From positions 1 through 57,115 of the forward strand of contig CAYZEK010000002.1 in the NCBI GenBank assembly GCA_964477805.1: DNA of 57,115 nt. The letters are read 5' to 3'. A model generated the notes under the pieces. That model was not told where the DNA came from and did no database searches. It saw only the letters and a list, made by a program, of their open reading frames with translations. This document shows positions 29,951 to 46,512 of the stretch, one piece after another (within the stretch, counting starts at the first letter, position 1; every line of letters begins with the position of its first letter). A program made the translations under genes and the position numbers. Origin of the DNA: an uncultured Candidatus Saccharibacteria bacterium (GTDB lineage: Bacteria; Patescibacteriota; Doudnabacteria; UBA920).

Positions 29951-30622
29951 ATGAACGAAGCACATTCCCAGCAAATTCTACTGGCTGGCGAAAAAGAGCA
30001 ATTACGCTTGATTGCTCGTAGACAACTCAGCAAGATCTACTCCGGACTCGCGGGATCAAAGATGGTCCCTAGCGAATATCTAGCGATGACGCTGGAAGTC
30101 CTGTCAACCCCTGGAAAAAACATCTATGAGGAAATCCTCAGAGAGAGGATAAAGAAAGCGTATCCAAAATACGCCCAATCTTCCGGCCTCATCTCTGACC
30201 CGACGTCCAAAGAGATGAAAGATAAACTCTTCCTTCCTGAAGAGCAAAAATTGCTGGGGGCGTACATTGATCGCGACAGGTCCAGGTTTGCATCGCAGTT
30301 TGAAGGGGTCGAGGAAGACCAACCCATCGATAGCGAATTTTTGCAAAAATGGGTGGAGCATCGAGCTGAGGTGTTCCGGCGTCAACATTTGAGAGTGCTC
30401 GGTGAAGAAGCCGATTCAATCTTTCTCGAGGATCGCGACGATCCCAAGATCACCTTGTTCAAGCACAAACCGACTTGGCTGAGGAACATTCAGGAAGCCG
30501 AGAAAACGGGTAAGGCCGATCATCGCGTTGTCGAAACGCAGAAGAATCGGATCGCCGAACAAGAATCGGCAAAAGCGATGCCAGAGGAACCAAAGGTAGC
30601 CACAGCAACCCCACAAGCGTAG
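29951..30622 (+). CDS. Hypothetical soluble 223-aa protein
   Basis: Strong Shine-Dalgarno, own promoter and terminator; charged and helical; no motif recognised. Confidence 0.55.
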   Translation: MNEAHSQQILLAGEKEQLRLIARRQLSKIYSGLAGSKMVPSEYLAMTLEVLSTPGKNIYEEILRERIKKAYPKYAQSSGLISDPTSKEMKDKLFLPEEQKLLGAYIDRDRSRFASQFEGVEEDQPIDSEFLQKWVEHRAEVFRRQHLRVLGEEADSIFLEDRDDPKITLFKHKPTWLRNIQEAEKTGKADHRVVETQKNRIAEQESAKAMPEEPKVATATPQA

Positions 30623-30652
30623 CTAACCAACAACCAAAAGCATGACAATATT

Positions 30653-30682
30653 GGACAGACCACCCACAGGTCTGTCTTTTTT
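30653..30682 (+). terminator. Rho-independent terminator of the 223-aa gene
   Basis: Stem gacagacc/ggtctgtc, then T6. Confidence 0.8.
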
Positions 30683-30685
30683 CAT

Positions 30686-30717
30686 AAAAAAATCGCCCAG
30701 CAGTTGAATGCTGGGCG
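30686..30717 (-). terminator. Rho-independent terminator of the 642-aa gene
   Basis: Stem cgcccagca/tgctgggcg; the minus strand is followed by a T-run. Confidence 0.8.
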
Positions 30718-30753
30718 AAAATATGAAGAATGAAGAATCTGGTTCACGAGGCT

Positions 30754-32682
30754 TCACGGCACAGGGTCTGTGACTACTGGCGAAGTTCCTGACATCGCCC
30801 GGTCATAAACACCTTCAAGCTCCTGCTGGAACTTTGGGTTGTAAACAAAATGGTCAGCAGTGCCTTCTTTAATGCGGTCCATAACCCCATCGGCACGCAA
30901 ATCCATAATTACAAACTCCAAAGCATCACGGGTTTTTTCCGACATCGGTTCGCCATTAATGCGCGCGCCAATATCAAATGCCACTCCGATCACGTGGGTA
31001 CGAGGTTGTGTCTGAGGGAGACAACCTTGCCCATTTACCCTTACAGGCTTGTCGTACATTTCGTTCGTACGGACTAAGCCTGTAATCTCCAGCGTATTGC
31101 CACCCAATTCTTTAACTCTTGAAGCAAGCAAGTAAATCAATCCTGCTGTCGCTTTCCGAGTAAAATAATAGGAAGCTTCGTTTCCAGAATCACATTCTCC
31201 GATTCGATCTGGACCTTTCGTACGCAGAACAAATCCAGATTTAGAACTGCTTTTAAGTGCGACCAACTCTCCCTGCTTAAACGCATGTTCTACATCTGTG
31301 CGAGTTTGATATTTCGCATCAGAATTAGACCACCACGCGCGCATTGGGCGATTAGCCAAGCCACCATCAGGATCTTGCTGATCCTTGATCATAGCAAGAA
31401 AACCCTTTCGATCAGTTCTCATTAAAGCAAAACCTTCAATAGCTGCCAACCCTGTGTAAACATAGGTAGCAGAACTGTCAGCTAAGCTAAATAGCAATTC
31501 ATAAGTTTTAGGGGTGCGGTTTGGAGTGCTACGAAAGAAGATATCGTCGTAGCTAATACCTGCTTCTCTGACTGCCTTAGCGATAGATCCATTCGGGTCT
31601 CTCGTTTGGCTAAAGTTAGCAGGATATTTTTTTCTCCAACCAGGGGTTGTTTCATCTAGATAATACATAACCAATTTTTTTAGGTTACCCATACCCATAT
31701 GAAACTCTACAAAGCCCCAATTCTCATCACCCCAGTACCTGGCGCTATCGCCAATGATATCGGCGGCAACAGGTATGGCGTAACTTGGATCAAGCCTGCG
31801 ATCCACTATTTTACTACCTTTCGGTATGAACTTAATTTGGTTTTTTGTCCCTGCCCGCTGAAGTACTTCTTTACAGAAACCAGCGTCCATAACCAAATCG
31901 CGCTCACATCCGACTGACAGCAAAAGCTGGGCAAACCCGGCGGCACCAGACTTGGCGTTAACCAAGTCTGTGTTGCAAAATCCTTCCACAAACAGCTGGC
32001 CCTCAAAACGTTCAGGAGTAATGCCTTGTTTTTTTGCTTCTGCATAGATGAGTGGTTGATACTTCTCCATGCATAAAGCACTTTTCTCGGCATTACCTTT
32101 CCCCCAAACAGCAAACTTAGCTTGTTCAACTCTGTTTGCTTTCCTAGTAGCCAACTCTTCAGATGTCATACTGAAGCGTTCTCTACCATAAGGAAGTTTT
32201 GCTCGGACTACCTTGACGGTATTCCAAGTCATAATCCCAGAGACGCCCACAAAAATTACTAGGGCACCCAATGAAATTAATAACTTAGTCTTCCATGGCA
32301 TGGCAATAAATTGCTTGCCAACAACCCTAACAGCTCTGGCATGAATACCATGCAAAGCACCCAGGTACCGATGAAACCAACCCAAAAATTTATTTACTCC
32401 TTGTAAGGACTTCAAAACTTTAGGGTATTCGTTGAACCAGCTCGGGTGGTCAACCAAACGAGCAACGCACCAGCGTGATAACACCAGGGATGCAAAGACT
32501 ATCACTAGTCCCAGCAAACCTGTGCGCCACCACAGGTAAAAATATAGCAGTGCCAAAATGACAGCACTACCGAACGTGAAAGCGAGAAAAATGTAATAAC
32601 TAAGCTTCGTTAAAAGCCAGCTGTAATCTTTCCCAGCCTCTCCTGATTGCCTTTTGGCAATCAAACTTTCTTCATTCTTCAT
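30754..32682 (-). CDS. Membrane-anchored putative cell-wall hydrolase: SLT-like lytic transglycosylase plus M15/LAS-like peptidase
   Basis: About 4 N-terminal TMs. SLT-like motifs FVEG..N....SGAAGFAQLL and FHMGMGN (residues about 205-335). C-terminal THVIGVAFD (HxxGxAxD) and ADHFVY (residues about 505-615). Confidence 0.62.
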   Translation of the reverse strand: MKNEESLIAKRQSGEAGKDYSWLLTKLSYYIFLAFTFGSAVILALLYFYLWWRTGLLGLVIVFASLVLSRWCVARLVDHPSWFNEYPKVLKSLQGVNKFLGWFHRYLGALHGIHARAVRVVGKQFIAMPWKTKLLISLGALVIFVGVSGIMTWNTVKVVRAKLPYGRERFSMTSEELATRKANRVEQAKFAVWGKGNAEKSALCMEKYQPLIYAEAKKQGITPERFEGQLFVEGFCNTDLVNAKSGAAGFAQLLLSVGCERDLVMDAGFCKEVLQRAGTKNQIKFIPKGSKIVDRRLDPSYAIPVAADIIGDSARYWGDENWGFVEFHMGMGNLKKLVMYYLDETTPGWRKKYPANFSQTRDPNGSIAKAVREAGISYDDIFFRSTPNRTPKTYELLFSLADSSATYVYTGLAAIEGFALMRTDRKGFLAMIKDQQDPDGGLANRPMRAWWSNSDAKYQTRTDVEHAFKQGELVALKSSSKSGFVLRTKGPDRIGECDSGNEASYYFTRKATAGLIYLLASRVKELGGNTLEITGLVRTNEMYDKPVRVNGQGCLPQTQPRTHVIGVAFDIGARINGEPMSEKTRDALEFVIMDLRADGVMDRIKEGTADHFVYNPKFQQELEGVYDRAMSGTSPVVTDPVP

Positions 32683-32720
32683 AATACTTCCCCCTTTTTT
32701 TATGTCAAAAAACTAACGAG

Positions 32721-32749
32721 ATAATACCATATTTTGCTGATTTTGTCAA
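32721..32749 (-). promoter_or_regulatory. Promoter of the hydrolase gene: TTGACAAAATC class, 17-nt spacer, TGg-TATTAT
   Basis: Minus strand reads ttgacaaaatcagcaaaatatggtattat; AAGGGGGA Shine-Dalgarno before ATG 32682. Confidence 0.6.
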
Positions 32750-32833
32750 TTTATCTTAATTCCACTTCATAAAAAGAATAAAGAAAAACATTGTCAGATG
32801 TTGCACTTGGGGGTGAAATCCAGTGCTTCGATG

Positions 32834-32862
32834 TTGACAAAATCTTATAAATTTTGTATAAT
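32834..32862 (+). promoter_or_regulatory. Consensus sigma-70-type promoter TTGACA-17-TATAAT (TTGACAAAATC class)
   Basis: ttgacaaaatcttataaattttgtataat; about 137-nt leader to ATG 33006. Confidence 0.7.
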
Positions 32863-33005
32863 ATTGTGTTAAATGCTTTGGGATTATGGCTTGTTTTTTG
32901 CACATACGGTGTGTAAAAAAGGGGTTAAAATCTTAGGAGAATCGTCTTGTCCCCCTAACAAAGACGCCTACACCAAAAAACTTACATTCTACAGGAGGTA
33001 GAATT

Positions 33006-33953
33006 ATGCGTTTACTGAAAATTTCAGGATATGTGTTTGTGCTCTTCATCTTTTTGATGATGAGCATGATCACTAGCTTTGGGCAAGAAACAACCAAAGC
33101 TACAACCGCAACCACGGCCGCCTGCGCCAAAACCGAGTTGCCCACAAGGCAACTACGAACATCCAAGATCGCTAAAGCAAAGCGCGTTAGGCATAAACGC
33201 CCACGCCGTCAAAAAGCAACAGCACAGACGACTCGGGTGATTTATCTGCCCGCACCGACGCCAAAACCGCCAGTTTTAGCAACCAACGCTGATTACAGCG
33301 ACATGGTTGTCAACGCTGGGAACGAAGGAAAACAAACTGGCAAAATCAAACTTGCGAGCGGTAACGATGCAGAAGATGCGGGAACGTATCTGAACGCATT
33401 GGCTAGCCCGAATTTGCAAGCGTGGTTCGCTGGTATGGAATTGCACGTTTTTTCACCCAACGGCGGTGACGGCCGAGTAATCATTTCCGACAAAAACGGC
33501 AAGGTTCTAGATGTCGTTAATGTCTCTGGCGAAAGGCTGGCAACTGTCATAGCGATGGAAAACAACATCGCTGACAACGCCAAATCCAGCGCCGCGACGC
33601 GAGACATGATCTCATCACTTTGGTGGATCGTGCTAGTCGGATTAGCGCTGATCGTGACTTTGTTGATCCTGAGTTACATTAGGCTAAACATCCTCAAAAT
33701 GATCGAGGCTGCAACCTACCAAATTGGAAGCAGGTTAAGTCGGACCAATGAAATGCTGAAGGATCTTCATTCTGAGACGAACAAAATTCGTTATAAGACT
33801 GATGATCTTGCCAGCGACGTTGAGAAGATCATGGCGCACTACGGTATTCATCGTAAGGATCCCAGCCCCATCCAAGCACCAATCGAGACACCCATCATTG
33901 ACGCCGAAGTGGTGGACGACGATGACCCGGACCACCCGGTGGTTGCGGGATAA
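33006..33953 (+). CDS. Hypothetical exported bitopic protein (signal peptide, basic stretch, ectodomain, TM, coiled-coil tail)
   Basis: AGGAGG Shine-Dalgarno 7 nt upstream; signal-like N-terminus; KAKRVRHKRPRRQK stretch; TM WWIVLVGLALIVTLLILSYI; acidic C-terminus. Confidence 0.55.
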   Translation: MRLLKISGYVFVLFIFLMMSMITSFGQETTKATTATTAACAKTELPTRQLRTSKIAKAKRVRHKRPRRQKATAQTTRVIYLPAPTPKPPVLATNADYSDMVVNAGNEGKQTGKIKLASGNDAEDAGTYLNALASPNLQAWFAGMELHVFSPNGGDGRVIISDKNGKVLDVVNVSGERLATVIAMENNIADNAKSSAATRDMISSLWWIVLVGLALIVTLLILSYIRLNILKMIEAATYQIGSRLSRTNEMLKDLHSETNKIRYKTDDLASDVEKIMAHYGIHRKDPSPIQAPIETPIIDAEVVDDDDPDHPVVAG

Positions 33954-34102
33954 AACCTGCAAAAGACTAGCCCATTGCTAGTTTAAGAATTTGGTGAAAC
34001 AGGGTTATTCTGAAGAAGAATATGCACTCCCGGTTGAGCTCCCAGGCCCTTGTTGCTTGGAAGAGCAACAAAGCGGTACAGACAGTAAACGCACCTCAAT
34101 TC

Positions 34103-34142
34103 AAAAAACCCCCTAACACATTTGGTGTTACGGGCGTTTTTT
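34103..34142. terminator. Bidirectional intrinsic terminator
   Basis: A6, then an imperfect stem cccctaacac/gtgttacggg, then T6; serves the 33006 transcript and the minus-strand 34145 gene. Confidence 0.65.
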
Positions 34143-34144
34143 AT

Positions 34145-34477
34145 TTATTTCTTTATTTGTTCAAATCCTGTTTTTAACACCTCCAACTCGCGGGCAATTG
34201 TGATTTGGATTTTAGCGTTTAAACCAGGTATATGAGAGGATAGCTCTTGAACTTTCTGCGACAAAGACACCGGGTCCATTTGCAATGCGTTTTCTAAATC
34301 TCTGGCTTGCTGTTCTGAAATACTATCTAAGAGAGTGTCAATGATTAAATCAGAAAAGTGTTCTGTCATTCCTTGCAACACTTCATGCTTTTGTTCATCG
34401 GAAAGATGCGCCAAGTTAAAATAACTTAACAATTCATCTTGGGATGGAACTAAATCATTTTGTTTGTTTTCTACCAT
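34145..34477 (-). CDS. Hypothetical acidic 110-aa protein
   Basis: ORF 11 nt downstream of the 884-aa gene; no motif recognised. Confidence 0.45.
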   Translation of the reverse strand: MVENKQNDLVPSQDELLSYFNLAHLSDEQKHEVLQGMTEHFSDLIIDTLLDSISEQQARDLENALQMDPVSLSQKVQELSSHIPGLNAKIQITIARELEVLKTGFEQIKK

Positions 34478-34488
34478 GGATTTGGAAA

Positions 34489-37143
34489 TTATAGACCTAA
34501 TTTTTTACGAGAAGTTTTTAAATTAGACTGAGCAATTTTTTCAGCTTTTTTAAAAATATTTATATACCCTTTTGGAATATCTTTGGGTGCTAGCTTTTCT
34601 AGATGTTTAATAATTTTACTAATTCGATCATTATCTACCCCTGGACCTACCTTTTGAGACATCTTGTAAAATGTTTCGTAAATAGAAGCTAATTTTTTTA
34701 CTTCGGGATTATCTAAAGCCGCGTCTGCATCAACTGCGTATTCACTTATTGAACGCAAAGTGTCTTGTATTTTTTTTATATCTTTGGATTTAAACCCTTC
34801 TTTGCTAACTGCACTATTTAGCAAACCACCATCTTGGCGCATCAGGTCAAACCAAATCCCCCTTTGACTCTTTGCTAAGCCTTTTGCCTCCGCTTCTTGA
34901 TATATATCTTCTGGCTTTGTCACTTCTGGTGATTTTTTCTTTGCACCCTTGCGCGATGCTGCGACTGCTACCACTGCTGTATCAACTGCTACATCATTAT
35001 TAGATTCTGCGTCTTCATTTGCGGCTACATCTTCATTCACCTCTGCATCTTCATCAGTTTCTACGTTTGCTGTTGTTTCCACAAGGTCATTTTCTGTTTG
35101 TTCAAGAGATTGATTCTCCGGATCGTGCTTAGCAATTAAATCCTCAAGTTGAGCATCTGCAGTAGCGTTAATTTCACTTAAACTTTTATGTTTTAAATGT
35201 TTTTTAAGTTTATACGCTCCGTAACCTGCTCCAATGCCCAACAACACCTCCACCACATCAACCACACCTGCCCTTGCGTAAGAATCAACAGGCTTTGTAA
35301 TAGCATCGCCAGCTTTTTTTGCAGATTCATCAGCCACAGCCCGCGCAACCTCCTGCTGTGCCTCTATCGTAGCAGAGTCAACAGGTGCTACTTCCACAGG
35401 CTTGGCATGTTCTAGCAACTTTTCAAAAAAGTGATTGCTATCAGACCCAATTTTATCGTTCTTCAGCAAATCCATGCTTTGTTCTGATAACCGATGACCA
35501 GGTGAGTTTAATAATTTCGTTAAATTGGCGATTTTTTCTGGACTGAGTTGATTAGCCTTATCCCATGCGTTTTGGATTTGATCTCCAGTCAGCTCAAACT
35601 TTTGCCCTAATTCCACCACATGCCCAACACCCTTAGTTTGATCCAAAAAATGTTCTTTCATTAAAGTATCTTCAGCAAACACCAATTTAGCTAACTGCTC
35701 TGGACTAAGTTCTGTTGAAGTATCGCCACTTAAATGATTTTTATTTACTAAATAATCATGCAACAGATCTCGAGCAGCATGAGTTGCCCCCTCCCCTTTT
35801 TCTGCCACTGTGATGAATTTTTGTTGCAGTAATTCTTTTTGTAAACTTGCCAAAGATTCATGTGCGTGAGCATTAATAACTTCTTGTTGAAGTGTTCCCA
35901 TTGCGACAGTAGCTTGCTCGGCAACATTTGGGTTGACTTGTAAAATCTTCCCAGTTTTTTCAATGGCCTGTTCAGTAATTTTTTCTGAGCTTTTGTCTCC
36001 TGGCGCCCAACCAAACACTGAACGCACGGAATCGCTATCCAACAAGGCGTGCATACCGTAACCAACCCCACCACCCAATGCGCCAGAAGCAGCCCCAACA
36101 AGAATATTTTTAACTAACTTTGCCTTAAATTGAGGGTTCTTTTGTGTCTCAAACTTTACCTTTTCAGAAAAAAGACGCCCTGATACCAGATTTTTCAAAA
36201 ACTGCCCAGAAGTCTGCCGTTCATTTTTGATACCCTCTAGTTTACGCAAACTTTTACGAGAATCACGAGATTCATGCATTACCGCAAGAAACTTTTTTGC
36301 ATCTGAAAGTTTTTCCAATTTTTCTTTAGATAATTCTAGTCGAAGCAACAACTCTGCTTTTTGCAACTTCACTTTCAACATATTAACCTCTAAGGGTAAT
36401 AGTTTGTCATTCTTAAGTGCCTTGCGACCTTTATCAATTATTTCTGCAATCCTTACTTTGTCATTCCCCTTCAAAGCTTCATCTAATTGTCGCAGTACAT
36501 CATTACTGTCAACTTTTAATCTCTCTTTCCAATAAGTTTCGATAGCTGCGAAACCGCCTCCAATCAATGCGCCAAGACCAATACTCCCACCCAAGCTAGT
36601 CCAACCCAAATATGCTCTCGCAGAGGATTTTACCACACCACGAAGCCCAGCGCCTGCTAAGGCTGGCAAAGTAAATTTTGTTGCAGTGTGTTTTAGAAAA
36701 CCAGCGAGGCGATTTTTAGAAGTCTGTCCTTGCAGTTTTTCGATTAACTCAGCTTTTAGTTTTTTAACAGCTTCCTCACCTCCCTCAAACTCACCTCCCT
36801 CAAACTCTGCCCTGATCTTTTCAAATTCTTCTGCAAAATTTTCATCAATCAACACACTTAACTCATCTACGTTGTTAAGCATGGCTTCGGCAACATCTTC
36901 TGCTTGTTGCTCTACATCTTGTTCTGGTTGTTGCTCTGATTCTTGTTCTACTTCTTGCTCTGCTTGTCGTCCAATTTCTTGTTCTGCTATATCTTCTGAA
37001 TTTTCCTCAATAGCGGTGTCTTGCGTCTCTACCTCCTGAGATTGTTTTTCTTCCTCAACAGCAAATTCAGCAGGGTCCTGTTTTACATCAGTATCATCTG
37101 CCAATTTTTTTTCTTTACCAAAAAACCGTCCAATAAAACTCAT
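34489..37143 (-). CDS. Large hypothetical protein (884 aa): acidic repeat N-terminus and three Gly-rich hydrophobic segments
   Basis: EQEVEQESEQQPEQDVEQQAE and EFEGG x2 repeats; segments GWTSLGGSIGLGALIGGGFAAI, ILVGAASGALGGGVGYGM, VLLGIGAGYGAY. Confidence 0.6.
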   Translation of the reverse strand: MSFIGRFFGKEKKLADDTDVKQDPAEFAVEEEKQSQEVETQDTAIEENSEDIAEQEIGRQAEQEVEQESEQQPEQDVEQQAEDVAEAMLNNVDELSVLIDENFAEEFEKIRAEFEGGEFEGGEEAVKKLKAELIEKLQGQTSKNRLAGFLKHTATKFTLPALAGAGLRGVVKSSARAYLGWTSLGGSIGLGALIGGGFAAIETYWKERLKVDSNDVLRQLDEALKGNDKVRIAEIIDKGRKALKNDKLLPLEVNMLKVKLQKAELLLRLELSKEKLEKLSDAKKFLAVMHESRDSRKSLRKLEGIKNERQTSGQFLKNLVSGRLFSEKVKFETQKNPQFKAKLVKNILVGAASGALGGGVGYGMHALLDSDSVRSVFGWAPGDKSSEKITEQAIEKTGKILQVNPNVAEQATVAMGTLQQEVINAHAHESLASLQKELLQQKFITVAEKGEGATHAARDLLHDYLVNKNHLSGDTSTELSPEQLAKLVFAEDTLMKEHFLDQTKGVGHVVELGQKFELTGDQIQNAWDKANQLSPEKIANLTKLLNSPGHRLSEQSMDLLKNDKIGSDSNHFFEKLLEHAKPVEVAPVDSATIEAQQEVARAVADESAKKAGDAITKPVDSYARAGVVDVVEVLLGIGAGYGAYKLKKHLKHKSLSEINATADAQLEDLIAKHDPENQSLEQTENDLVETTANVETDEDAEVNEDVAANEDAESNNDVAVDTAVVAVAASRKGAKKKSPEVTKPEDIYQEAEAKGLAKSQRGIWFDLMRQDGGLLNSAVSKEGFKSKDIKKIQDTLRSISEYAVDADAALDNPEVKKLASIYETFYKMSQKVGPGVDNDRISKIIKHLEKLAPKDIPKGYINIFKKAEKIAQSNLKTSRKKLGL
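36776..36805 (-). repeat. In-frame 15-nt tandem repeat x2 (EFEGG x2)
   Basis: tcacctccctcaaac x2. Confidence 0.9.
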
Positions 37144-37167
37144 AAATCATGTATTTATATCAATTCT

Positions 37168-37176
37168 ATTGTACCA
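37168..37176 (-). promoter_or_regulatory. Extended -10 element TGGTACAAT upstream of the 884-aa gene
   Basis: Plus-strand attgtacca, about 24 nt upstream of ATG 37143. Confidence 0.45.
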
Positions 37177-37211
37177 CACTTTCAAAAAAACTATGCCCTA
37201 GGGAAATTAAT

Positions 37212-40305: not shown

Positions 40306-40327
40306 GACCTAATCATATCACAGAGAC

Positions 40328-40365
40328 AAAAAAACAGAGTCGATCCTTTTTGGAATCGACTCTGT
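40328..40365 (-). terminator. Rho-independent terminator ending the three-gene operon
   Basis: 11-bp stem acagagtcgat/atcgactctgt; the minus strand is followed by T7. Confidence 0.85.
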
Positions 40366-40379
40366 AAACTCTGAACATT

Positions 40380-41906
40380 TCAGCTAATCCTCCTTGTTCG
40401 AACAGTAAACGCACCATCACCCTGATAACCTTTTAAGCTATCAATGGTGCGGTACGTAATCTCGCCACTTTCTGTAGCTACGATACGTTGTGGTCCGCAA
40501 ATCAAAAATCTTTTACTCGACTTTGAACCGATCCACATTTCTAACCCACCCACATTTTTAGCGAATGGACTGTCAACTGCCGTATCTGCATAACCAGTAG
40601 TTTCTCCGCATGAGCCAACAACTGGTCCATCCGACCGCGCTTGTACTGTCCCCGAAGGTTCGACTTCCACGACATCTCCTTTGTTAACACTAAAGGTCTG
40701 TACTCCTGTCGAATTCTTCTGCGGGACACGCACCACAGACTCTTTAACGGCGCTCGCCTTTATTGGCGCGGGCGCCGTCGGAACAGCTGAAGCGGTTGGC
40801 GAGTGCGAATTGCTTGGGCTAGAATTCAGACTTTGATCTGAAGCAGAAGCAAACGGATTCTTGCCATCGTTTAAGTCCTTTGAGAACTTATTGATCGCCT
40901 CGTTCTTTTGAGCGAAGTTCACAATAGGCCCTAAGGTTAACAGACCGATAAAAAGTACCGTCCCTGCAAAAGCGACAACACCCCAACGTAATTCAAAGGC
41001 GTCTTTACCGGCGTCTTCATCAGTTGCCTTACCCTTCTTCAAGGAAACACCACTAAAAGCAATAGCAGCTACCAAAATGAAGAATAAACCCCAGATCAAC
41101 AGACCGGTGTTGTCGTCCGCCCCCCAATTTACCCTTGCCAAGAGTTTATAAAACCCAAGGTGGTAAATTAAGATCGCAGCGACAAGATACATCAGAAATG
41201 TCTGGACTTTTTCCAGCCAAAATGGTGGTCGTTTCCAGCCATAGATCATGAAGAATAGCCCAGCGATGCAGAGCAAAGCAATGATTAAACTCCCCAGATC
41301 ATGGCTCAGCCACTTCATGGTTAGCAATATAACATTGATCACCATGACATAAGCAAGAAACGCCATAATCCCAAACAGCAATTCTTTCGCCTTTGCCTCA
41401 AAAGCTTTTTCTTCTCGTGCTTCTTTCAAATCACTCAAGAATTTTTCTTCCTTATCAAAAGCCTCTCCGACTAAGTCTGGAATTGCCACCGCTGCAAGAT
41501 GAGCCACAACATTTATTGCGCTCAACACAACCCTTTCAATGCCTGCAACGACACCAGTGACAACCCCAACCTTCGTCGTTACGAGGAGGTAGTACGCCAC
41601 TGATACCAACATCAGAACCAACGGCACCAGGCGGAAGCCATAGTACCCTTCGGTGCAAACGCCGGTATTTGCGTCGCAAAAAGTCCGCGTTGTAACGACT
41701 AACGCTACCAACGCAATCAAATTAACTACCAGCGCAAAGCGCAGTAGTGTCCAGGTTTCAAGAAAATGCTTCGCCCCTTTAGACCAAGTCCAAATGGCAG
41801 CATTCTCAACCTCCAACACTCCCCACTTTATGATGGTTTCCACATGGTCCATAGCATCTGTACCAGAACCCTTCGACGACACCTTACCCTTACCCTTACT
41901 TGCCAT
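40380..41906 (-). CDS. 8-TM membrane protein with a C-terminal beta domain resembling PA-IL/LecA-type lectins
   Basis: GAGGAG Shine-Dalgarno. The last 118 aa (40383-40736) show the pattern GDVVEV..G......GP..G....GGLEMWIG....G.ITY.....GY.GDGAF.V, comparable by eye to LecA. Confidence 0.55.
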   Translation of the reverse strand: MASKGKGKVSSKGSGTDAMDHVETIIKWGVLEVENAAIWTWSKGAKHFLETWTLLRFALVVNLIALVALVVTTRTFCDANTGVCTEGYYGFRLVPLVLMLVSVAYYLLVTTKVGVVTGVVAGIERVVLSAINVVAHLAAVAIPDLVGEAFDKEEKFLSDLKEAREEKAFEAKAKELLFGIMAFLAYVMVINVILLTMKWLSHDLGSLIIALLCIAGLFFMIYGWKRPPFWLEKVQTFLMYLVAAILIYHLGFYKLLARVNWGADDNTGLLIWGLFFILVAAIAFSGVSLKKGKATDEDAGKDAFELRWGVVAFAGTVLFIGLLTLGPIVNFAQKNEAINKFSKDLNDGKNPFASASDQSLNSSPSNSHSPTASAVPTAPAPIKASAVKESVVRVPQKNSTGVQTFSVNKGDVVEVEPSGTVQARSDGPVVGSCGETTGYADTAVDSPFAKNVGGLEMWIGSKSSKRFLICGPQRIVATESGEITYRTIDSLKGYQGDGAFTVRTRRIS

Positions 41907-41917
41907 TTTTTTCTCCT

Positions 41918-42604
41918 CTAGAATATCCTAAACCCTAAAATCAGGGCTATGGTTGGGTGACGATCACGCCAAGTTGCTGGTGCAACTGACTGAACCGATT
42001 GAGCTTGTTGAAGCTTCTTGACCCGTAAACGAGCCCTACGCTCTTTCTGCAATACGCGATCACGCAGCTCCGCGTACTTCGCCATAATCTCCAAAGGTGT
42101 TATTAACCCTTGAATAGCCATTTCCAGCTGAGACGGATCAAATATGCCCATCCCATCAAGCGAGTCCATTACTTCCTTCTGCGTGCGCAAGTTGGCCAAA
42201 AAAGCCAACAGCATCAAACGATGCTTGCGATCACGCTCCGAGACATAGGCTTGCCGGAACTTCGCCTTATGCTTAGGCGAAAGTTGCTTGAAAACATTGA
42301 GCAACCAAAAACCTTTACGATCTTCAATTATCTCACTGTCCACGAGGCTTGCGATGTCGCAACCAAGCCTCATCTCATCCTTCATTCCAAAGGATGTTTC
42401 CCACGCCCCAAGGGCTTCATCCAAGGCCTCAGTCTGTTTGCCCTCTCGCATCAATGTTTCAATGCGATCAGCAGTCTTTCGCTCTTCCGGAGAAGAGCCT
42501 TTGCCCTTGAAAAATTTGGTTACATACCCCAAAACCTGCGAAGCGTCCAAAGCGACGTCCGCGATTTCGAACAGGTCCCTTAATCCTACAAAGCCTACTG
42601 CCAT
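41918..42604 (-). CDS. Hypothetical helical 228-aa protein
   Basis: GAGGTG Shine-Dalgarno; Arg/Lys-rich coiled segment near the C-terminus; no motif recognised. Confidence 0.5.
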   Translation of the reverse strand: MAVGFVGLRDLFEIADVALDASQVLGYVTKFFKGKGSSPEERKTADRIETLMREGKQTEALDEALGAWETSFGMKDEMRLGCDIASLVDSEIIEDRKGFWLLNVFKQLSPKHKAKFRQAYVSERDRKHRLMLLAFLANLRTQKEVMDSLDGMGIFDPSQLEMAIQGLITPLEIMAKYAELRDRVLQKERRARLRVKKLQQAQSVQSVAPATWRDRHPTIALILGFRIF

Positions 42605-42612
42605 AATTCACC

Positions 42613-43347
42613 TCAAAATTCCTTCCGCAATCTTTTGATTACGGGTTTGTTAGCTAAGTACAAAAAAGAAATTTGTACATCGCTAATTGCCTTTGACCTA
42701 ACAAGCAGGAGCAAACCTTTAACAGGAATGACAAGCTTGTGCTTCTTTACCGCTCTAGCAATTTCTGCATCACTTTCATAATCAGACAGTGATACATTCT
42801 TGTTGGCGGTGAAAAAAACTTCCCCAGCAACAGAATTACCTTTTTTGTCCAAACACTGAACTCGGAAAGGATAGTCAATACCGCGAGCGGTAATAACTCG
42901 ATCCTCTTCTCCGAGCAATGTCTCGACGACCAAAGGGTCTTTCTTGGCAGAAGACCCAACTTTACCAGCCCCGCCAATACCATGAACTTCTTGCAAAGCT
43001 TTTAGCTCTGCTTTGTTAAAGTCCTTTTTGACCCTGGCGCCATGTGGAGCCACTACACTAATTGTGGTGCAGTTCGCTGGTAAGCTTTCGATCAAAACTT
43101 CAGATGTGGCCATACCGTTGCTTTGCGTAAACAAATCAAAGGCGAGTCCATCTTTGTCTAACAATCCCTCGAGCGGAAGCTCAGCCGGATTGCGCTTATT
43201 CCCAGCAAACGCAAATAACTTAGCATCGTTCGTAGCAATATTATTCTCATAATAATGCGCAGTGACGTGCAAAGATTTGTTGTCTGCTCCAAACGAAATA
43301 AACAAGTCAATCTTCTCGGAAACACGACTCGTTTTTGCTATGCTCAT
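42613..43347 (-). CDS. Hypothetical beta-rich 244-aa protein, first gene of the operon
   Basis: AGGAGGG Shine-Dalgarno 8 nt upstream of the ATG; no TM; no motif recognised. Confidence 0.55.
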   Translation of the reverse strand: MSIAKTSRVSEKIDLFISFGADNKSLHVTAHYYENNIATNDAKLFAFAGNKRNPAELPLEGLLDKDGLAFDLFTQSNGMATSEVLIESLPANCTTISVVAPHGARVKKDFNKAELKALQEVHGIGGAGKVGSSAKKDPLVVETLLGEEDRVITARGIDYPFRVQCLDKKGNSVAGEVFFTANKNVSLSDYESDAEIARAVKKHKLVIPVKGLLLLVRSKAISDVQISFLYLANKPVIKRLRKEF

Positions 43348-43406: not shown

Positions 43407-43452
43407 TTTTGCCAAAAAGAATCACACCTTAATATAAACCTTTTTGGCAAAA
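43407..43452 (-). promoter_or_regulatory. 13-bp perfect inverted repeat (ttttgccaaaaag, 20 nt, ctttttggcaaaa) in the operon leader
   Basis: Read directly; lies between the promoter and the Shine-Dalgarno; tgcaatttt is also repeated at 43382 and 43402. Confidence 0.6.
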
Positions 43453-43476
43453 CCAACACTATGTTCCTAATTTGCG

Positions 43477-43505
43477 ATTATATCAGATTTCAATGATTTT
43501 GTCAA
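43477..43505 (-). promoter_or_regulatory. Consensus promoter TTGACA-17-TATAAT with TGa extension (TTGACAAAATC class)
   Basis: Minus strand reads ttgacaaaatcattgaaatctgatataat; about 120-nt leader to ATG 43347. Confidence 0.7.
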
Positions 43506-43516
43506 GCATGGTTGCT

Positions 43517-43543
43517 CAAAAAAACCTCATAGATAAGAGGTTT
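43517..43543 (-). terminator. Rho-independent terminator after the ATPase gene
   Basis: Stem aaacctc/gaggttt; the minus strand is followed by a T-run; 25 nt past the stop. Confidence 0.75.
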
Positions 43544-43567
43544 AATATGCCAGAATATTGAAATGGT

Positions 43568-46114
43568 TTAGAGCGTCTTCTCTGTCGCACCCTTCCCTGC
43601 CGACATCATGTCAGCCACTCGACTAGCTGTGAGTATTTCCTCTTCCACCTCTAGGCGAGACCGGCCGAATTTTAGCCTAGAAAGCTGCCTGATAGCAGAC
43701 GCTGTACTAGCTTGCTCAGCTGTTGGTTTTAATAACGGATATGTTGCCATATTAAATGGCTTGCTTGCTGTTCCGTTAATCATCAATTTTACAAAGGCAT
43801 TAAATCGGTCAACATTTAGCAAATCAAACTCATTAAACACTGGTGCAAATTCCTTTGCCATTGTTTCCGCATCCTCAACCCCAATCCGAAAACTTATCAT
43901 TGAACCAGCGTTACCAAATACTGCATCGCGCAAATCACTACTCCCTGCTCCATGAGCTCCAGCGCCTTGCGCTAATTGTGCCAAAAACTGATGACCGATA
44001 ATCAAGTTCAATCTATATTTACGTGCCTCACTCAAAATACTGGAAAATGCATCGGTGATAAAGTTTTGGAACTCATCGACATACAAATAAAAGTCTCGGC
44101 GCTGATCTTCAGGAATATCTGCGCGTGACATTGCTGCCATCTGAATTTTGCTTACCAGTATCAACCCGAGTAATTTCGCATTCATTTCTCCGACTTTACC
44201 TTTAGCCAAATTTACTAGCAAGATTTTACCGTTGTCCATGATCTCACGGAAGTTAAAGGAACTTTTACTTTGTCCGACAATGTTTCGCATGGTTGCATTT
44301 TCAACGAATCGTCCCACCTTAGAAACTAAATAACCAAGCATTTCAGATTTATGAAAGTCCGAGGTTTTTGCCATCTCTTTTTCCCAAAATGCCCGCACCA
44401 CCGGATCAGTCACTTTCCCAATTTTATATTTCTGAAATTCAGTATCGGTAAAAATTCTCGGGATATCCACAATAGTACCAGGGTGTTCATTATCTGCCAT
44501 TAACGTGAGCATTGCGTTACGCATATTATGTTCGAACATTGGTCCGAGCATAGCAGGATCTGTAACCAATTTATAAAAAATTGAAATCATTTCTTGTACA
44601 GCAAAATCTTTTTGGTCTTCCGAAAATACTTCCAACATATTTAACCCCATAGGTCTTTCTACGTCAAACGGTTCAAACAAAATGACATCTTCAGCTCGAT
44701 TTTTTGGAATGTGGGGCAAGATGTCTTCAATATAATCACCATGTGGATCAATTACACACAACCCTTCGCCATTTTGAATATCCTGAACAGACATATATTT
44801 CATCAACTCAGTTTTACCAACACCAGTGCGACCCAAAATATACATGTGGCGACGACGATCATCACGACTGGCATGAATTTTTGTTTCTACACCCCGATAG
44901 ATATTACGACCTAACAACACCCCGTCAGTTGGGGTATTTACAGGCGCTGGAGCTTTCTTAGATTGTAACCATTTGATATTAGGGGTTTCCAAAAATGGCG
45001 TTGGCAAGTGCCATAGACTAGCCAATTCTTCGGTATTCAAAATTGTCTTTCGGCCATAACGTCGGTAAATCCGAAACATAAAATCTTTAGCGATATCCCC
45101 AGCCTTACGTTTCTTTACTTTGAAACCATTGAATGGAGGCATGTTGTATTGCAAAAATGAAGACACAATATTACTCAAATTCACAGATGCAACCCCAGGC
45201 TGAGTTGATGAAGCAATAATTCGAATATTAGTTCTAAACCCTGGACGACTAGCTTTTTCTTCAAAGCGCTTAACCATCTCCTGTTGCATTGGCGTCAAAT
45301 TGATTGGGCTGTTCAAGCCAGACAAGTCCTTATGTGCATCTGTTGGTGTTGCCTTACCCAATACTCCATCTCTCACCATACCAAATGTCTCACCAGCCAT
45401 CCGAGCCCCTACACCTTTTACAACAGTGTTAGGGTTTTTCCCTTGTTGAATTTCTAAAGCCATATGATGTGGTTTATTTTGCCAATGATGCCCCGCTGGA
45501 TATAAAATAAACTGAATGGCCGCACCTTCATCCTGACCCAACTTTGACATTGCATTTGTCAAAGAATTTAGAGGATCAGTTTCCATATTTTTGTAAGTCC
45601 GAATTGGAAACATATATGGGCGATTCACTTGTAATTCAGCAGCCGCAATTTGCCCGCCTTTTTGAAATGGGTTATAACCATGCACGATATCAATATGAGC
45701 GTGCGGATATTGTGCCTGTAATTGCTTCTCAACCAACCCGCGGAGATGATTGGGACAATTGATGTAAAAAGAAATCTTCTTATCAGTACAAGCTATCTCA
45801 AAACTGAGATAATCTTTCGGTTGAAAAAACCAATTACTGTGACTTATTTCTGATAAAGATGTAAACAACTGTTCTGCAACTGCAATGAGATTCTTTTTTG
45901 ACTCTTCATTATTTTGAACATTGGCATTCTTATCATCTGAACCTTCTTTAGGCATTTGCACTTCTAAAAATACCCAGTTTTTTGTGCGGGGTAAAATAAT
46001 TCTGGAATAATACCAATGCCGGTGAATATAATATATTAAAAACGCCAAAAAGACCGTTATAAGAACGGTCAATAAGATGCTAGTAAGAACAATTGTACTT
46101 AATTCAAACGGCAT
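43568..46114 (-). CDS. Membrane-anchored FtsK/HerA-superfamily P-loop ATPase, type IV secretion coupling-protein-like (VirD4/TraD/TraG type)
   Basis: N-terminal TM; about 390-aa unassigned domain; Walker A GRTGVGKT (44810-44833); VIDPHGDY; Walker B FYLYVDEFQNF (44060-44089); ARKYRLNLIIGHQFLAQL and GNAGSMISFRIG..DAE typical of the coupling-protein C-terminal module. Confidence 0.78.
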   Translation of the reverse strand: MPFELSTIVLTSILLTVLITVFLAFLIYYIHRHWYYSRIILPRTKNWVFLEVQMPKEGSDDKNANVQNNEESKKNLIAVAEQLFTSLSEISHSNWFFQPKDYLSFEIACTDKKISFYINCPNHLRGLVEKQLQAQYPHAHIDIVHGYNPFQKGGQIAAAELQVNRPYMFPIRTYKNMETDPLNSLTNAMSKLGQDEGAAIQFILYPAGHHWQNKPHHMALEIQQGKNPNTVVKGVGARMAGETFGMVRDGVLGKATPTDAHKDLSGLNSPINLTPMQQEMVKRFEEKASRPGFRTNIRIIASSTQPGVASVNLSNIVSSFLQYNMPPFNGFKVKKRKAGDIAKDFMFRIYRRYGRKTILNTEELASLWHLPTPFLETPNIKWLQSKKAPAPVNTPTDGVLLGRNIYRGVETKIHASRDDRRRHMYILGRTGVGKTELMKYMSVQDIQNGEGLCVIDPHGDYIEDILPHIPKNRAEDVILFEPFDVERPMGLNMLEVFSEDQKDFAVQEMISIFYKLVTDPAMLGPMFEHNMRNAMLTLMADNEHPGTIVDIPRIFTDTEFQKYKIGKVTDPVVRAFWEKEMAKTSDFHKSEMLGYLVSKVGRFVENATMRNIVGQSKSSFNFREIMDNGKILLVNLAKGKVGEMNAKLLGLILVSKIQMAAMSRADIPEDQRRDFYLYVDEFQNFITDAFSSILSEARKYRLNLIIGHQFLAQLAQGAGAHGAGSSDLRDAVFGNAGSMISFRIGVEDAETMAKEFAPVFNEFDLLNVDRFNAFVKLMINGTASKPFNMATYPLLKPTAEQASTASAIRQLSRLKFGRSRLEVEEEILTASRVADMMSAGKGATEKTL

Positions 46115-46119
46115 TTGAT

Positions 46120-46512
46120 TTAAAGGTTATCAGGAGTTTGTGATACTCCCAAACCCAGTTCCTGCATATCATGCAAATCAACTGAGTTATCACCATTTAA
46201 AAAACTTAAAAGTGTTTCTTGAATTTCTTGAGTCTTTGCCAGCGCAACTTCTGGGGGTATTGATTTTTGAGCTTGTTCTGTGGTCGGCACCTCAAAAGCA
46301 GACACTCCCTCTGTTTGCCCGAGCTTGTCCACCTCATCAAATTTCGTACTGCCTAAATATTGTAGCTCTTTTTGATCACTGAATAACTCTGAATTTGGTT
46401 CAGTAAATTCTGATATATTTCCTGAGGCATTCTTTAAAATCTCTTCCGAGCCACCATGCTCCAACTGTTGTGTACGATGAATTTTAGCTCCTATTTCTTT
46501 TTCTTGGGGCAT
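46120..46512 (-). CDS. Hypothetical acidic 130-aa protein co-transcribed with the ATPase
   Basis: Stop lies 5 nt before the ATPase ATG; low-complexity and acidic; no motif recognised. Confidence 0.45.
   Translation of the reverse strand: MPQEKEIGAKIHRTQQLEHGGSEEILKNASGNISEFTEPNSELFSDQKELQYLGSTKFDEVDKLGQTEGVSAFEVPTTEQAQKSIPPEVALAKTQEIQETLLSFLNGDNSVDLHDMQELGLGVSQTPDNL

Follow-up and report, generated by a model that had tools for sequence, protein, structure and literature searches.

The twelve consecutive open reading frames between dnaX, with a neighboring GtrA-like gene, and secY in an uncultured, Doudnabacteria-type member of the Patescibacteria raise the question of whether they form a single system or are a composite of parts with different histories. 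The first-pass annotation had proposed the former: all twelve genes together would encode a single reduced, T4SS-like machine for moving macromolecules across, or attaching to, a neighboring cell envelope. The window (the whole stretch of DNA that was analyzed) is 57,115 nt long. The open reading frame listing and Pfam searches bear out the gene arrangement as described: twelve open reading frames are called over positions 29951–46512 with the positions and sizes given there, flanked by secY on one side (Pfam 2.5e-107) and by the GtrA-like gene and dnaX on the other, with an extra 217-aa gene (g217) between the GtrA gene and the block. Six public contigs carry a protein identical to the 642-aa hydrolase, and three independent assemblies among these agree with the window in gene layout and in the length of each gene; thus the block is not an assembly artefact. 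The loci, including the conserved low-coordinate backbone (26753..29771, reverse strand), are:

26753..28405, reverse strand: dnaX, conserved backbone, low-coordinate side
28427..29098, reverse strand: GtrA-family gene, conserved backbone
29118..29771, reverse strand: g217, 217 aa, 60%–96% identical across the lineage
29951..30622, forward strand: A223, 223-aa orphan soluble protein, GC3 0.55, convergent with B642
30754..32682, reverse strand: B642, 642-aa membrane-anchored (3–4 TM), predicted bifunctional wall hydrolase
33006..33953, forward strand: C315, 315-aa orphan membrane protein, GC3 0.55
34145..34477, reverse strand: D110, 110-aa small acidic helical protein, DUF5663-like
34489..37143, reverse strand: E884, 884-aa large protein, paired with D110
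37212..38759, reverse strand: F515, 515-aa glycosyltransferase of GT-C fold (modeled), family without a Pfam model
38707..40305, reverse strand: G532, 532-aa polytopic membrane protein, 53-nt overlap with F515
40380..41906, reverse strand: H508, 508-aa polytopic membrane protein, about 8–9 hydrophobic segments
41918..42604, reverse strand: I228, 228-aa basic protein
42613..43347, reverse strand: J244, 244-aa soluble near-orphan
43568..46114, reverse strand: K848, 848-aa membrane-anchored ATPase (Pfam, NCBIfam, PDB TrwB 3e-7)
46120..46512, reverse strand: L130, 130-aa small acidic soluble protein, pI 4.3

The twelve-gene interval is not one unit but a composite of two parts with different histories. 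It is likely that these are a vertically inherited core ATPase and a clade-specific, fast-diverging envelope island of ~13.4 kb (29951–43347).

The distribution of the genes was followed in the best 80 genome loci by ATPase (58%–84% identical to K848). secY is located upstream of the ATPase in 51 of these and g217 downstream in 58, and the backbone order in the lineage is rplO-secY-(small genes)-ATPase-(0.1–1.5 kb)-g217-gtrA-dnaX. The ATPase–g217 gap is <1.7 kb in 50 of the 58 loci with both genes (median 0.8 kb), and in those 50 the gap holds none of genes A–J (29951–43347). All the short-gap loci have an ATPase identity of 72% or less; the gap is widened (4 to >10 kb) in every locus of at least 75% identity that extends far enough. 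Only the subclade to which the window belongs has the island in this gap, and there it is patchy and rearranged. Recurrent at the same site in the subclade are the J-I-H-G-F order, the D-E pair, and a hydrolase gene beside g217; in relatives the island order is J-I-c16/H-G or PAP2-(GT2)-F, where c16 is the positional family of H508. The 244/228/508-aa trio singled out in the first-pass annotation recurs in this J-I-c16/H order within the subclade. The numbers of protein clusters also speak against co-occurrence of all twelve genes (>5,400 for the ATPase vs. 77 for F515, 15 for the hydrolase and 9 for J244).

Within the lineage, K848 is an ordinary core gene that lies outside the island, with homologs in >540 species-level genomes. 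It had been described as a coupling-protein-like P-loop ATPase, and this is correct: Pfam matches are to TrwB_AAD_bind (5e-10), DUF87 and T4SS-DNA_transf, in addition to the PDB match to TrwB. One TM helix (aa positions 8–26) forms the membrane anchor, the N-terminal region has a DUF8128 domain (precomputed Pfam on the identical protein and homologs), and the C-terminus is a T4CP (TrwB/VirD4/TraD)-like P-loop domain with a Walker A motif at 428–435 (GRTGVGKT) and a Walker B-like motif at 676–681 (YLYVDE). K848 belongs to an already known class, the orphan VirD4-like T4CP homologs of Patescibacteria that are unlinked to virB4 (Quinonero-Coronel et al. 2025, PMC12102498). Across 2,918 genomes of Patescibacteria that work counts 5,713 VirD4-like T4CPs, of which a mere 148 are close to virB4, and considers them possibly exapted. 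These orphan proteins are the closest known system for K848, with TrwB of plasmid R388 as the structural prototype. Shared features are the P-loop NBD with its TrwB_AAD_bind/T4SS-DNA_transf signatures, both Walker motifs, the membrane anchor at the N-terminus, and a chromosomal location far from any virB4 or relaxase (within the scanned window open reading frames). K848 differs in that its usual two-TM N-terminus is replaced by one TM helix plus a DUF8128 domain of ~350 aa, and in its fixed housekeeping setting (secY, dnaX) without visible partner machinery.

The stop codon of L130 is 5 nt ahead of the K848 start, thus the two are probably co-translated. In relatives, its position is occupied by genes of ~110–150 aa from several unrelated families; by these comparisons the position is conserved and the sequence is not. 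K848 and this coupled small open reading frame would have been inherited vertically. The term “accessory” does not suit two of the twelve genes, the core, syntenic ATPase and the small gene upstream that keeps its place.

Predicted transcription signals, all of which are consensus matches only, are:

43477..43505, reverse strand: sigma70-type promoter before J244, 12/12, TG-extended consensus match
32834..32862: promoter before C315, perfect 12/12 consensus match
32721..32749: promoter before B642, 11/12 consensus match
~43518..43543: hairpin plus T-run after the K848 stop, spotted only by eye, not among the scan's calls
40334..40365: strong terminator-like hairpin after H508
30693..30718: terminator after B642, consensus scan
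30653..30677: terminator after A223, consensus scan

The J244 promoter, together with the hairpin after K848, suggests separate transcripts for the ATPase and the J-I-H genes. Its −35 box, TTGACAAAATC, recurs before B642 and C315, and the island appears to consist of several transcription units. GC3 is 0.27–0.35 in the backbone, K, L and D–G (K848, 0.35) and 0.41–0.55 in A, C, I, H, J and B; the island is a GC3 mosaic, with foreign GC3 in two sub-blocks (A-B-C and H-I-J).

Within the subclade, the island is always directly downstream of the ATPase, and the hydrolase family was found nowhere else. A functional tie between ATPase and island may thus exist as far as synteny alone is concerned. 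One such proposal is that the core ATPase works without VirB4, as an exporter or as a motor for assembly, with swappable cargo from adjoining fast-evolving soluble proteins (L130, J244, I228, D110, A223 and the small variable genes of other genomes). T4CPs function as substrate receptors, small, poorly conserved genes are present on both sides of K848 in essentially all relatives, and the apparent translational coupling of L130 would suit a cargo gene. The proposal is nevertheless unlikely: no partner that could form the translocation channel has come to light, several of the neighbors would reach the membrane or the Sec route without a T4CP, and in a small clade with conserved synteny genes may be neighbors for historical reasons only. 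Published work does not settle what the orphan T4CPs of Patescibacteria do, which gives room for a cargo locus, but the T4CP homolog of S. epibionticum is non-essential for epibiotic growth, which argues against it (PMC12102498).

The reading preferred here, of a core ATPase next to an envelope island of separate history, is consistent with the predicted functions of the island proteins. The AF2 model of F515 (pLDDT 94.8, pTM 0.92) gives STT3 as the first Foldseek match (1.5e-10, TMq 0.70), followed by PglB, AglB, DPY19 and ArnT; the OST-type matches range from E = 1.5e-10 to 7e-7 (TMq 0.56–0.71). The modeled fold confirms F515 as a GT-C glycosyltransferase. D39-x-D41 follows TM1, E257 and R316 are invariant, and W412-D413 opens the C-terminal soluble domain. 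G532 aligns with the F515 family (hhalign 91%, 9e-7) over the last TM helices and the extracytoplasmic domain, and is a distant paralog of F515 and probably a second GT-C enzyme. The prediction of two GT-C-like proteins was thus right, by structure for the one and by profile homology for the other, and the VirB6-like role suggested for the polytopic proteins is contradicted by it.

Two F515 relatives (P0140 and P0196) are fused to GT2, and others have GT2 adjacent and GtrA two genes downstream. In loci L004 and L015 a PAP2 phosphatase gene occupies the G532 position next to the F515 homolog. This context points to lipid-linked envelope glycosylation rather than translocation. No GT2 is present among the window open reading frames scanned with Pfam (those outside the 48–57 kb ribosomal-protein stretch, apart from a few short ones), thus the proposed Gtr-like pathway is locally incomplete. 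Like gtrABC modules (GtrA flippase-like, GtrB GT2, type-specific GT-C GtrC), the locus has a polytopic GT-C enzyme near a GtrA-family gene, GT2 fused or adjacent in relatives, and a GT-C component that is variable and lineage-specific; unlike them, it has two tandem GT-C genes and lacks GT2 in the scanned window. Compared with GtrC and the ArnT/PMT-type GT-C enzymes, F515 differs in having OST catalytic subunits as best structural matches and no Pfam model for its family. With STT3/PglB/AglB it shares, in addition to the Foldseek matches, the D-x-D after TM1, the W-D pair opening the extracytoplasmic domain, and a PAP2 phosphatase adjoining the homologs in two relatives. However, it is much smaller (515 aa vs. 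640–870), no sequence-level similarity to OST subunits is detectable, it has QWDQ in place of an intact WWDYG motif, and the GT2 fusion in relatives argues for monophosphate-linked single-sugar donors, unlike OST. F515 and G532 would take sugar from a donor linked to polyprenyl phosphate and attach it to an acceptor outside the cytoplasm, either a surface protein or a glycopolymer of the wall. A GT2 encoded elsewhere in the genome would supply this donor, and the neighboring GtrA-family protein would help to flip it.

H508 had been noted to end in a lectin-like beta domain, and this is supported indirectly. The H508 sequence alone shows no LecA match, but its C-terminus (~aa positions 395–508) aligns with the c16 profile (hhalign 95.5%, 1.4e-8); c16 in turn has Pfam PA-IL matches in four of ten members (best 2.6e-7) and matches PllA/LecA in PDB (5e-11). 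The assignment to PA-IL/LecA-type galactophilic lectins is therefore transitive, and H508 would be a divergent member joined to them only via the profile. LecA/PllA is a soluble tetramer, whereas the H508 domain is fused to an 8–9-TM membrane part. It may display a LecA-like sugar-binding domain on a polytopic anchor, which makes it a candidate for adhesion or for the handling of glycans.

B642 shows an SLT-type lytic transglycosylase domain (E233; SGAAGFAQ, positions 245–252); 13 of the 15 members of its family give SLT matches, the best at 3e-7, and Foldseek matches MltE (prob 0.99). The SLT part of the SLT plus M15/LAS-like description is thus firm. The LAS part is only probable: the C-terminal T-H563-VIGVAF-D570 and H611 (H563-x6-D570 and H611 are invariant) suggest a VanY/LAS-type peptidase, and matches there are weak (Pfam DUF5715, 0.003, sub-threshold; LdcB, prob 0.57). 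The family comprises only 15 clusters among 5.8 billion proteins; its genes were inside the ATPase–g217 interval in all seven contexts examined, usually immediately before g217. B642 may cut glycan strands of peptidoglycan, and probably peptide stems too, from its membrane anchor, in wall remodeling or attack on a host wall.

Patchy content, rearrangement, extreme divergence among close relatives and foreign GC3 are consistent with diversifying selection on a locus for surface variation or host interaction. The lectin-like membrane protein, wall hydrolase and glycosyltransferases could help an episymbiont to attach or to vary its surface. The earlier envelope/attachment idea is thus retained for the ten-gene island, but not as a translocation machine.

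The proposal that all twelve genes form a divergent, minimal Gram-positive-type T4SS-like machine, moving macromolecules or docking onto a neighbor, relied on three parts: the ATPase as T4CP, the bifunctional hydrolase as a VirB1 counterpart and the polytopic proteins as counterparts of VirB6. VirB4 is the T4SS signature, and no VirB4, VirB3/6/8, pilin or relaxase is found among the twelve proteins or the other window open reading frames scanned; the first-pass annotation had likewise seen no VirB4, pilin or relaxase. K848 is a genuine T4CP-type ATPase, and on haloarchaeal plasmids a DUF8128-like plus T4CP architecture adjoins a pilin gene, with a neighbor also annotated [quoted passage not shown]. 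B642 is similar to the VirB1-type hydrolases found in monoderm T4SSs, which have two domains and a membrane anchor (PMC12102498), and its homologs keep to the ATPase–g217 interval in the seven contexts examined. The nearest systems are TraG of pIP501, PrgK of pCF10 and MltE/Slt70; shared with the VirB1-type enzymes are a membrane anchor and an SLT domain with catalytic Glu that is combined with a further domain, a peptidoglycan peptidase. However, the second domain is VanY/LAS-like (H-x6-D...H) vs. CHAP or NlpC, the N-terminus has 3–4 TM helices, there are no T4SS genes nearby, and the gene is usually beside g217/gtrA and not beside the ATPase. Also in favor of the model, the T4SS of Patescibacteria is known as repurposed and relaxase-free. 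The model is largely refuted, and is very unlikely, because the ATPase is kept without genes A–J in 50 of 58 loci and both proposed VirB6-like proteins are assigned to GT-C glycosyltransferases; the apparently separate transcription of the ATPase and the compositional mosaic also argue against it.

Least probable, with hardly any likelihood, is a remnant of an ICE, plasmid or prophage integrated behind secY that brought in the T4CP and hydrolase: elevated GC3 in A-B-C and H-I-J, distant homologs on plasmids and the fact that conjugative elements are the usual carriers of T4CP genes are in its favor, but the block shows neither integrase, transposase, relaxase or tRNA genes nor direct repeats at its flanks, there are no PHROG matches and no viral-contig relatives of B642, and the T4CP gene has native GC3 (0.35) and a chromosomal position conserved across hundreds of species.

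In the preferred reading of core ATPase plus envelope island, the remaining six of the ten island proteins, D110/E884, J244, I228, C315 and A223, would be lineage-specific. Pfam, NCBIfam, PHROG and PADLOC give no family for A223, C315, D110, E884, I228, J244 and L130, the exceptions in these searches being two sub-threshold Pfam matches, of E884 to RAMPs and of B642 to DUF5715. Of the eight proteins for which the first-pass annotation recognized no family, D110 is DUF5663-like by profile comparison (its family vs. the DUF5663-positive c42 family, hhalign 91.9%, 6.9e-7). The N-terminus of C315 is a hydrophobic segment, either signal or anchor, and another TM spans positions 207–225; the protein has no homolog in the 80 loci. 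E884 has an acidic, EQ-rich repeat at its N-terminus (12-nt period, 36899–36994) and glycine-rich hydrophobic segments; its RAMP match (0.0018, without a significant domain) was judged spurious. J244 has only 9 relatives among 1.84 billion representatives, with positional homologs in L001, L004, L041 and L050; relatives at the same position have an extra N-terminal cold-shock-like domain that J244 lacks, and the family profile matches a CSD protein in PDB (9e-4). An I228-type gene always follows the J-type gene in relatives. E884 homologs of 950–1130 aa are found in L015, L019, L041 and L081, and small DUF5663-type genes lie beside giant genes at the same site in L010, L011, L019, L041, L081 and L085.

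The block at 29951-46512 comprises 12 open reading frames of 223, 642, 315, 110, 884, 515, 532, 508, 228, 244, 848 and 130 aa, termed here A223 to L130 by a letter and the aa chain length. This listing exactly reproduces the gene count, sizes and span of the first-pass annotation, which had proposed that all 12 genes behind secY form one reduced T4SS-like translocation or host-attachment machine. Ten of the 12 are on the minus strand. The block is flanked on one side by secY (Pfam 2.5e-107), and on the other by a conserved unnamed gene of 217 aa (termed g217), a GtrA-family gene and dnaX. The remaining window carries housekeeping genes, i.e. those for ribosomal proteins, glycolysis and the pentose-phosphate pathway, MreB, RecJ and HtrA; the usual adk-map-infA run after secY is not seen in the window. 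Six contigs carry an identical 642-aa protein, and among these the same gene layout is displayed by three independent public assemblies; thus the layout of the 12 genes is real.

K848, the T4CP-like ATPase of the block, has >540 relatives in a scan limited to one genome per species. The best 80 of these display 58-84% identity and are all from Doudnabacteria/Patescibacteria MAGs. Proteins of the window were placed on the 80 loci with tblastn and phmmer, and the backbone order is rplO-secY-(0.5-3.4 kb of small variable genes)-K848-(gap)-g217-gtrA-dnaX-g554-htrA. In 50 loci, all with a K848 identity of <=72%, K848 and g217 are <1.7 kb apart (median 0.8 kb). The gap is widened to 4 to >10 kb at every locus with an identity of >=75% that reaches far enough, and at a few others. 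The gap sizes therefore show that K848 and the position of L130 are part of a conserved chromosome backbone, and that genes A to J (29951-43347, termed the island) are a clade-specific expansion of one intergenic gap. The ATPase is kept without genes A to J in 50 of 58 loci, and the expected co-occurrence of the block genes across related genomes is thus not found. The division into backbone and island also agrees with the family sizes within the block, which lie two to three orders of magnitude apart: there are >5,400 clusters for K848, 77 for F515 and 15 for B642, and J244 has 9 among 1.84 billion representatives.

The position of g217 is as follows.

29118-29771, minus strand, g217: N-terminal helix and two beta-rich segments; 60-96% identity across the lineage

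It has no significant match in Pfam, NCBIfam, PHROG or PDB. At every locus that reaches that far, the first conserved gene to follow the T4CP-like ATPase is g217, which may be the real conserved neighbour of the ATPase. On the other side of K848, the L130 stop codon is 5 nt from the K848 start. The interval between secY and the ATPase (0.5-3.4 kb; seen at 46512-46692 of the window and in loci L001-L080) also carries variable small genes, and in 23 loci it includes a 121-aa family with a zinc-peptidase-like motif, HEIGHHFG. Within the island, A223 and C315 have no homologue at any locus examined. The J244-I228 pair recurs directly before the gene at the H508 position, which in relatives belongs to a family termed c16. 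Relatives of J244 have a cold-shock-like N-domain that the copy in the window lacks.

The C-terminal half of K848 (aa 400-750) is a T4CP-type P-loop domain, as the first-pass annotation had recognized. Matches are to Pfam TrwB_AAD_bind (5e-10), T4SS-DNA_transf (1e-5), TraG-D_C (5e-4) and also DUF87, to NCBIfam TIGR03743 TraD (5e-16), and in the PDB to TrwB (3e-7 over aa 415-720). The Walker A sequence is GRTGVGKT (positions 428-435) and a Walker B-like sequence, YLYVDE, is at positions 676-681. Among the proteins of the block only K848 gave a match in the PHROGs and PADLOC scans, to a HerA/Mads8-type P-loop. The N-terminal part has a single strong hydrophobic helix at aa 8-26, i.e. a transmembrane anchor; canonical T4CPs have two N-terminal transmembrane helices. 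Precomputed annotation places Pfam DUF8128 in this part, and a literature search for DUF8128 found nothing. K848 thus displays the nucleotide-binding domain of the FtsK/HerA superfamily with Walker A/B and TrwB-type signature, as well as the N-terminal anchor, but neither a relaxase nor T4SS genes were found in the 57-kb window. It fits the definition of a T4CP by sequence, not by context.

The K848 family already carries the name [quoted passage not shown] in public annotation. Full-length distant homologues (~25% identity) are found on haloarchaeal plasmids, where they adjoin a pilin gene and a gene annotated as [quoted passage not shown], and further distant homologues are on plasmids of Streptomyces, Bacillus and Staphylococcus. 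These locations indicate that the K848 architecture derives from real mating-pair systems. In the Natrinema thermotolerans plasmid NZ_CP101874.1 (8851-13105) the homologue is split into a 399-aa N-terminal open reading frame and a 1,021-aa "TraM recognition domain" open reading frame, beside a pilin gene and a conjugative transfer gene, so annotated, of 1,107 aa. The combination of DUF8128 with a T4CP domain is thus shared with archaeal conjugation-like clusters. In Patescibacteria, 5,713 VirD4-like T4CPs have been counted across 2,918 genomes, and just 148 of these lie near virB4; exaptation has been suggested, and the T4CP homologue of S. epibionticum is non-essential for epibiotic growth (Quinonero-Coronel et al., PMC12102498). 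K848 is one of these already reported orphan T4CPs.

A VirB4-family ATPase is the signature component of a T4SS. No match of the VirB4/CagE/TrsE type was found in the 12 proteins or in the other window open reading frames scanned, where K848, of the T4CP type, is the sole T4SS-related P-loop ATPase; the only VirB4-type NCBIfam match is a weak one over 45 residues of the K848 P-loop itself (NF045975, E 9e-4). Pfam and NCBIfam likewise show no VirB3/PrgI, VirB6/PrgH or VirB8/PrgL in the block. The two polytopic proteins F515 and G532 were considered as VirB6-like channel parts and rejected, as F515 is a GT-C enzyme and G532 probably a second one (see below); H508 is polytopic, yet has no detectable VirB6 similarity. 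Membership in a T4SS of the monoderm (MPF-FATA) type thus fails on VirB4, on channel components and on co-occurrence as a cluster. With these results, and with an ATPase retained where genes A to J are absent, the locus does not reveal a new secretion machine made of all 12 genes. It is very unlikely that the core DUF8128-T4CP ATPase drives export or assembly as a motor independent of VirB4, with the hypervariable genes around it (L130, J244, I228, the D110/E884 pair and the other island genes) as its swappable clients; if true, the locus would be a new kind of system for surface variation or host interaction, confined to this lineage of Patescibacteria.

F515 has no Pfam model and no sequence-level PDB match, family profiles included, and a sequence-only PDB search also gave nothing for B642, alone or as a 4-sequence profile. 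Both were resolved only by structure prediction and Foldseek. The AF2 model of F515 (47-sequence alignment) has a pLDDT of 94.8 and a pTM of 0.92, and its top Foldseek matches are GT-C enzymes only: STT3 (1.5e-10, TMq 0.70), PglB, AglB, DPY19 and ArnT, followed by ALG9, AftB and Emb. Among the invariant positions are D41 (within D39-x-D41, which follows TM1), E257, R316 and W412. The predicted polytopic GT-C core and the acidic motif in the first extracytoplasmic loop place F515 in the GT-C superfamily. G532 overlaps F515 by 53 nt and is its distant paralogue; the similarity covers the last transmembrane helices plus the extracytoplasmic domain (hhalign 91%, 9e-7, over only ~180 columns). Two GT-C-like polytopic proteins had been named in the first pass; F515 is confirmed by its predicted structure, and G532 is a probable GT-C enzyme through its profile homology to F515. 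The membrane domain of H508 was considered as a third GT-C and rejected (hhalign probability 2%), and it is unrelated to F515.

Relatives of F515 give information on the possible donor. Two members of the family are fused to a GT2 domain (P0140 and P0196), and P0140, whose context was examined (locus L082), lies inside the same island between the ATPase and g217. At locus L083 a separate 231-aa GT2 is directly upstream of the F515 homologue, followed by g217 and gtrA, and at loci L004 and L015 the G532 position is held by a PAP2 lipid phosphatase. This context points to polyprenyl-phosphate-linked envelope glycosylation. From the GT2 fusion and adjacency and PAP2 in relatives, and the nearby GtrA, we infer that F515 may use polyprenyl-phosphate-linked sugar donors. 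The island is similar to gtrABC-type modules, but the GT2 partner was not found in the window open reading frames scanned, where the GtrA and GT-C genes are present; the triad of GtrA, GT2 and GT-C is complete in L082 and L083. The F515-type family is also found outside Patescibacteria: in Ardenticatenaceae (Chloroflexi; locus L084, 7001-8551) such a gene is two genes from a LytR-CpsA-Psr (LCP) ligase gene, a placement consistent with cell-wall glycopolymers.

As for the OST motifs WWDYG and DK/MI of the extracytoplasmic domain, F515 keeps only the W412-D413 pair (W412 invariant, D413 nearly so; consensus xWDxF), and no sequence-level match to any OST (STT3/PglB/AglB) was found. A correspondence between F515 residues and the catalytic residues of PglB is presumed here. 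OST membership is unproven, and a miniature protein-glycosylating OST-type enzyme in Patescibacteria is an independent but unlikely possibility.

B642 had been described as a wall hydrolase combining SLT and LAS/M15 motifs. The SLT part is well borne out: 13 of the 15 members of its family match Pfam SLT (3e-7 at best), the AF2 model (pLDDT 74) matches MltE in Foldseek (prob 0.99, TMt 0.5-0.58), and E233, S245-G-A and Q252 are invariant. With this fold, the catalytic Glu and the downstream motifs, B642 is a family-1 lytic transglycosylase. The LAS part is putative. The C-terminal part has an invariant H563-x6-D570 within xHxxGxAxD and an invariant H611, with Pfam DUF5715 at 0.003, below threshold, and the VanY-like LdcB in Foldseek at prob 0.57 (E 0.7; local pLDDT 56-87). 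B642 is like the VirB1-type two-domain hydrolases, but its second domain would be LAS-like, not CHAP, and its ties to g217/gtrA are as close as those to the ATPase: homologues are inside the K848-g217 interval in all seven contexts examined, in most cases immediately upstream of g217, and in one case next to K848 itself on the opposite strand. A scan of viral contigs found no relatives of the family.

H508 has ~8-9 hydrophobic segments. Proteins of the c16 family end in a PA-IL/LecA domain (best Pfam match 2.6e-7; PDB PllA 5e-11, LecA 5e-9), and the C-terminus of H508 aligns to the c16 profile (hhalign 95.5%, 1.4e-8). The lectin-like end proposed for H508 in the first pass is thus supported indirectly, through c16, but the H508 C-terminus alone gives no LecA match (phmmer against PDB), and the domain is best termed putative. 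D110 resembles DUF5663 proteins (hhalign 91.9% against a family with DUF5663 matches), and at the island site DUF5663 genes come in pairs with a gene for a very large protein, which is E884 in the window and has 950-1,756 aa in relatives. E884 has a weak Pfam RAMP match (0.0018, no significant domain), which was set aside as noise from its glycine-rich sequence. At the N-terminus of E884, six tandem 12-nt units (36899-36994, minus strand) encode an acidic EQ-rich repeat (…EQEVEQESEQQPEQDVEQQ…). The PHROGs and PADLOC scans yielded nothing for the island proteins.

The GC3 values are 0.27-0.35 for the backbone, K848, L130 and D-E-F-G, and 0.41-0.55 for A, B, C, H, I and J. The block is therefore a compositional mosaic in which two sub-blocks look more recently acquired. 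J244, B642 and C315, all in the sub-blocks of foreign GC3, share a -35 box, of which the window has three exact copies:

43495-43505, minus strand, TTGACAAAATC: -35 region of a perfect or near-perfect sigma70 match before J244
32739-32749, minus strand, TTGACAAAATC: the same, before B642
32834-32844, plus strand, TTGACAAAATC: the same, before C315

The match before J244 is a perfect TG-extended sigma70 promoter and follows a short hairpin with a T-run after the K848 stop codon, which was seen by eye and is outside the set flagged by the scan. Strong terminator-like hairpins follow H508, B642 and A223. An integrated mobile element is rejected: the window shows no tRNA, repeats that could be att-like flanks are short chance-level matches apart from the shared promoter box, and Pfam, NCBIfam, PHROG and PADLOC reveal no integrase, transposase, phage, conjugation or defence family in the island. 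The earlier remark that relaxase, VirB4 and pilin are not visible holds for the other window open reading frames scanned as well. Rfam at gathering thresholds gave no hit over the whole window.

The locus is most likely a composite of a core orphan T4CP-type ATPase and an envelope island. Synteny, domains and folds are results of the analysis, whereas the donors, the acceptors and the biological role are inferred. The GT-C enzymes would decorate extracytoplasmic acceptors with lipid-linked sugars; a GT2 would provide these sugars and the neighbouring GtrA-family protein would handle them; the membrane protein with the lectin-like end would bind glycans, its own or those of the host; and B642, as a membrane-anchored bifunctional hydrolase, would open peptidoglycan. 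What remains plausible of the original proposal, for 10 of the 12 genes, is a locus for the envelope or for attachment; a single translocation machine that includes K848 is not supported. Diversifying selection on the cell surface of a host-dependent bacterium would fit the rapid divergence, the patchy gene content and the foreign composition. Patescibacteria are believed to rely on contact with host cells, and their surface chemistry is almost unexplored. This locus shows where a Doudnabacteria-type lineage gathers variable envelope genes, i.e. an unannotated GT-C family with a predicted OST-like fold, a putative LecA-like lectin membrane protein and a narrow-range wall hydrolase with SLT and putative LAS domains. 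Each of these could reasonably take part in attachment to the host, in setting the host range or in evading phages. It is also a clean example of a T4CP-like ATPase fixed in a housekeeping context with no T4SS nearby, and sharpens the published question of what orphan T4CPs do in Patescibacteria. The novelty is modest: new unannotated families in known superfamilies, in a lineage-specific arrangement, beside an orphan T4CP of the kind already reported.

Among the metabolic genes of the left flank are two further loci on the minus strand, a GAF-PAS histidine kinase (858-2549) and a stand-alone RNase H/RVT_3-type protein (7931-8353).
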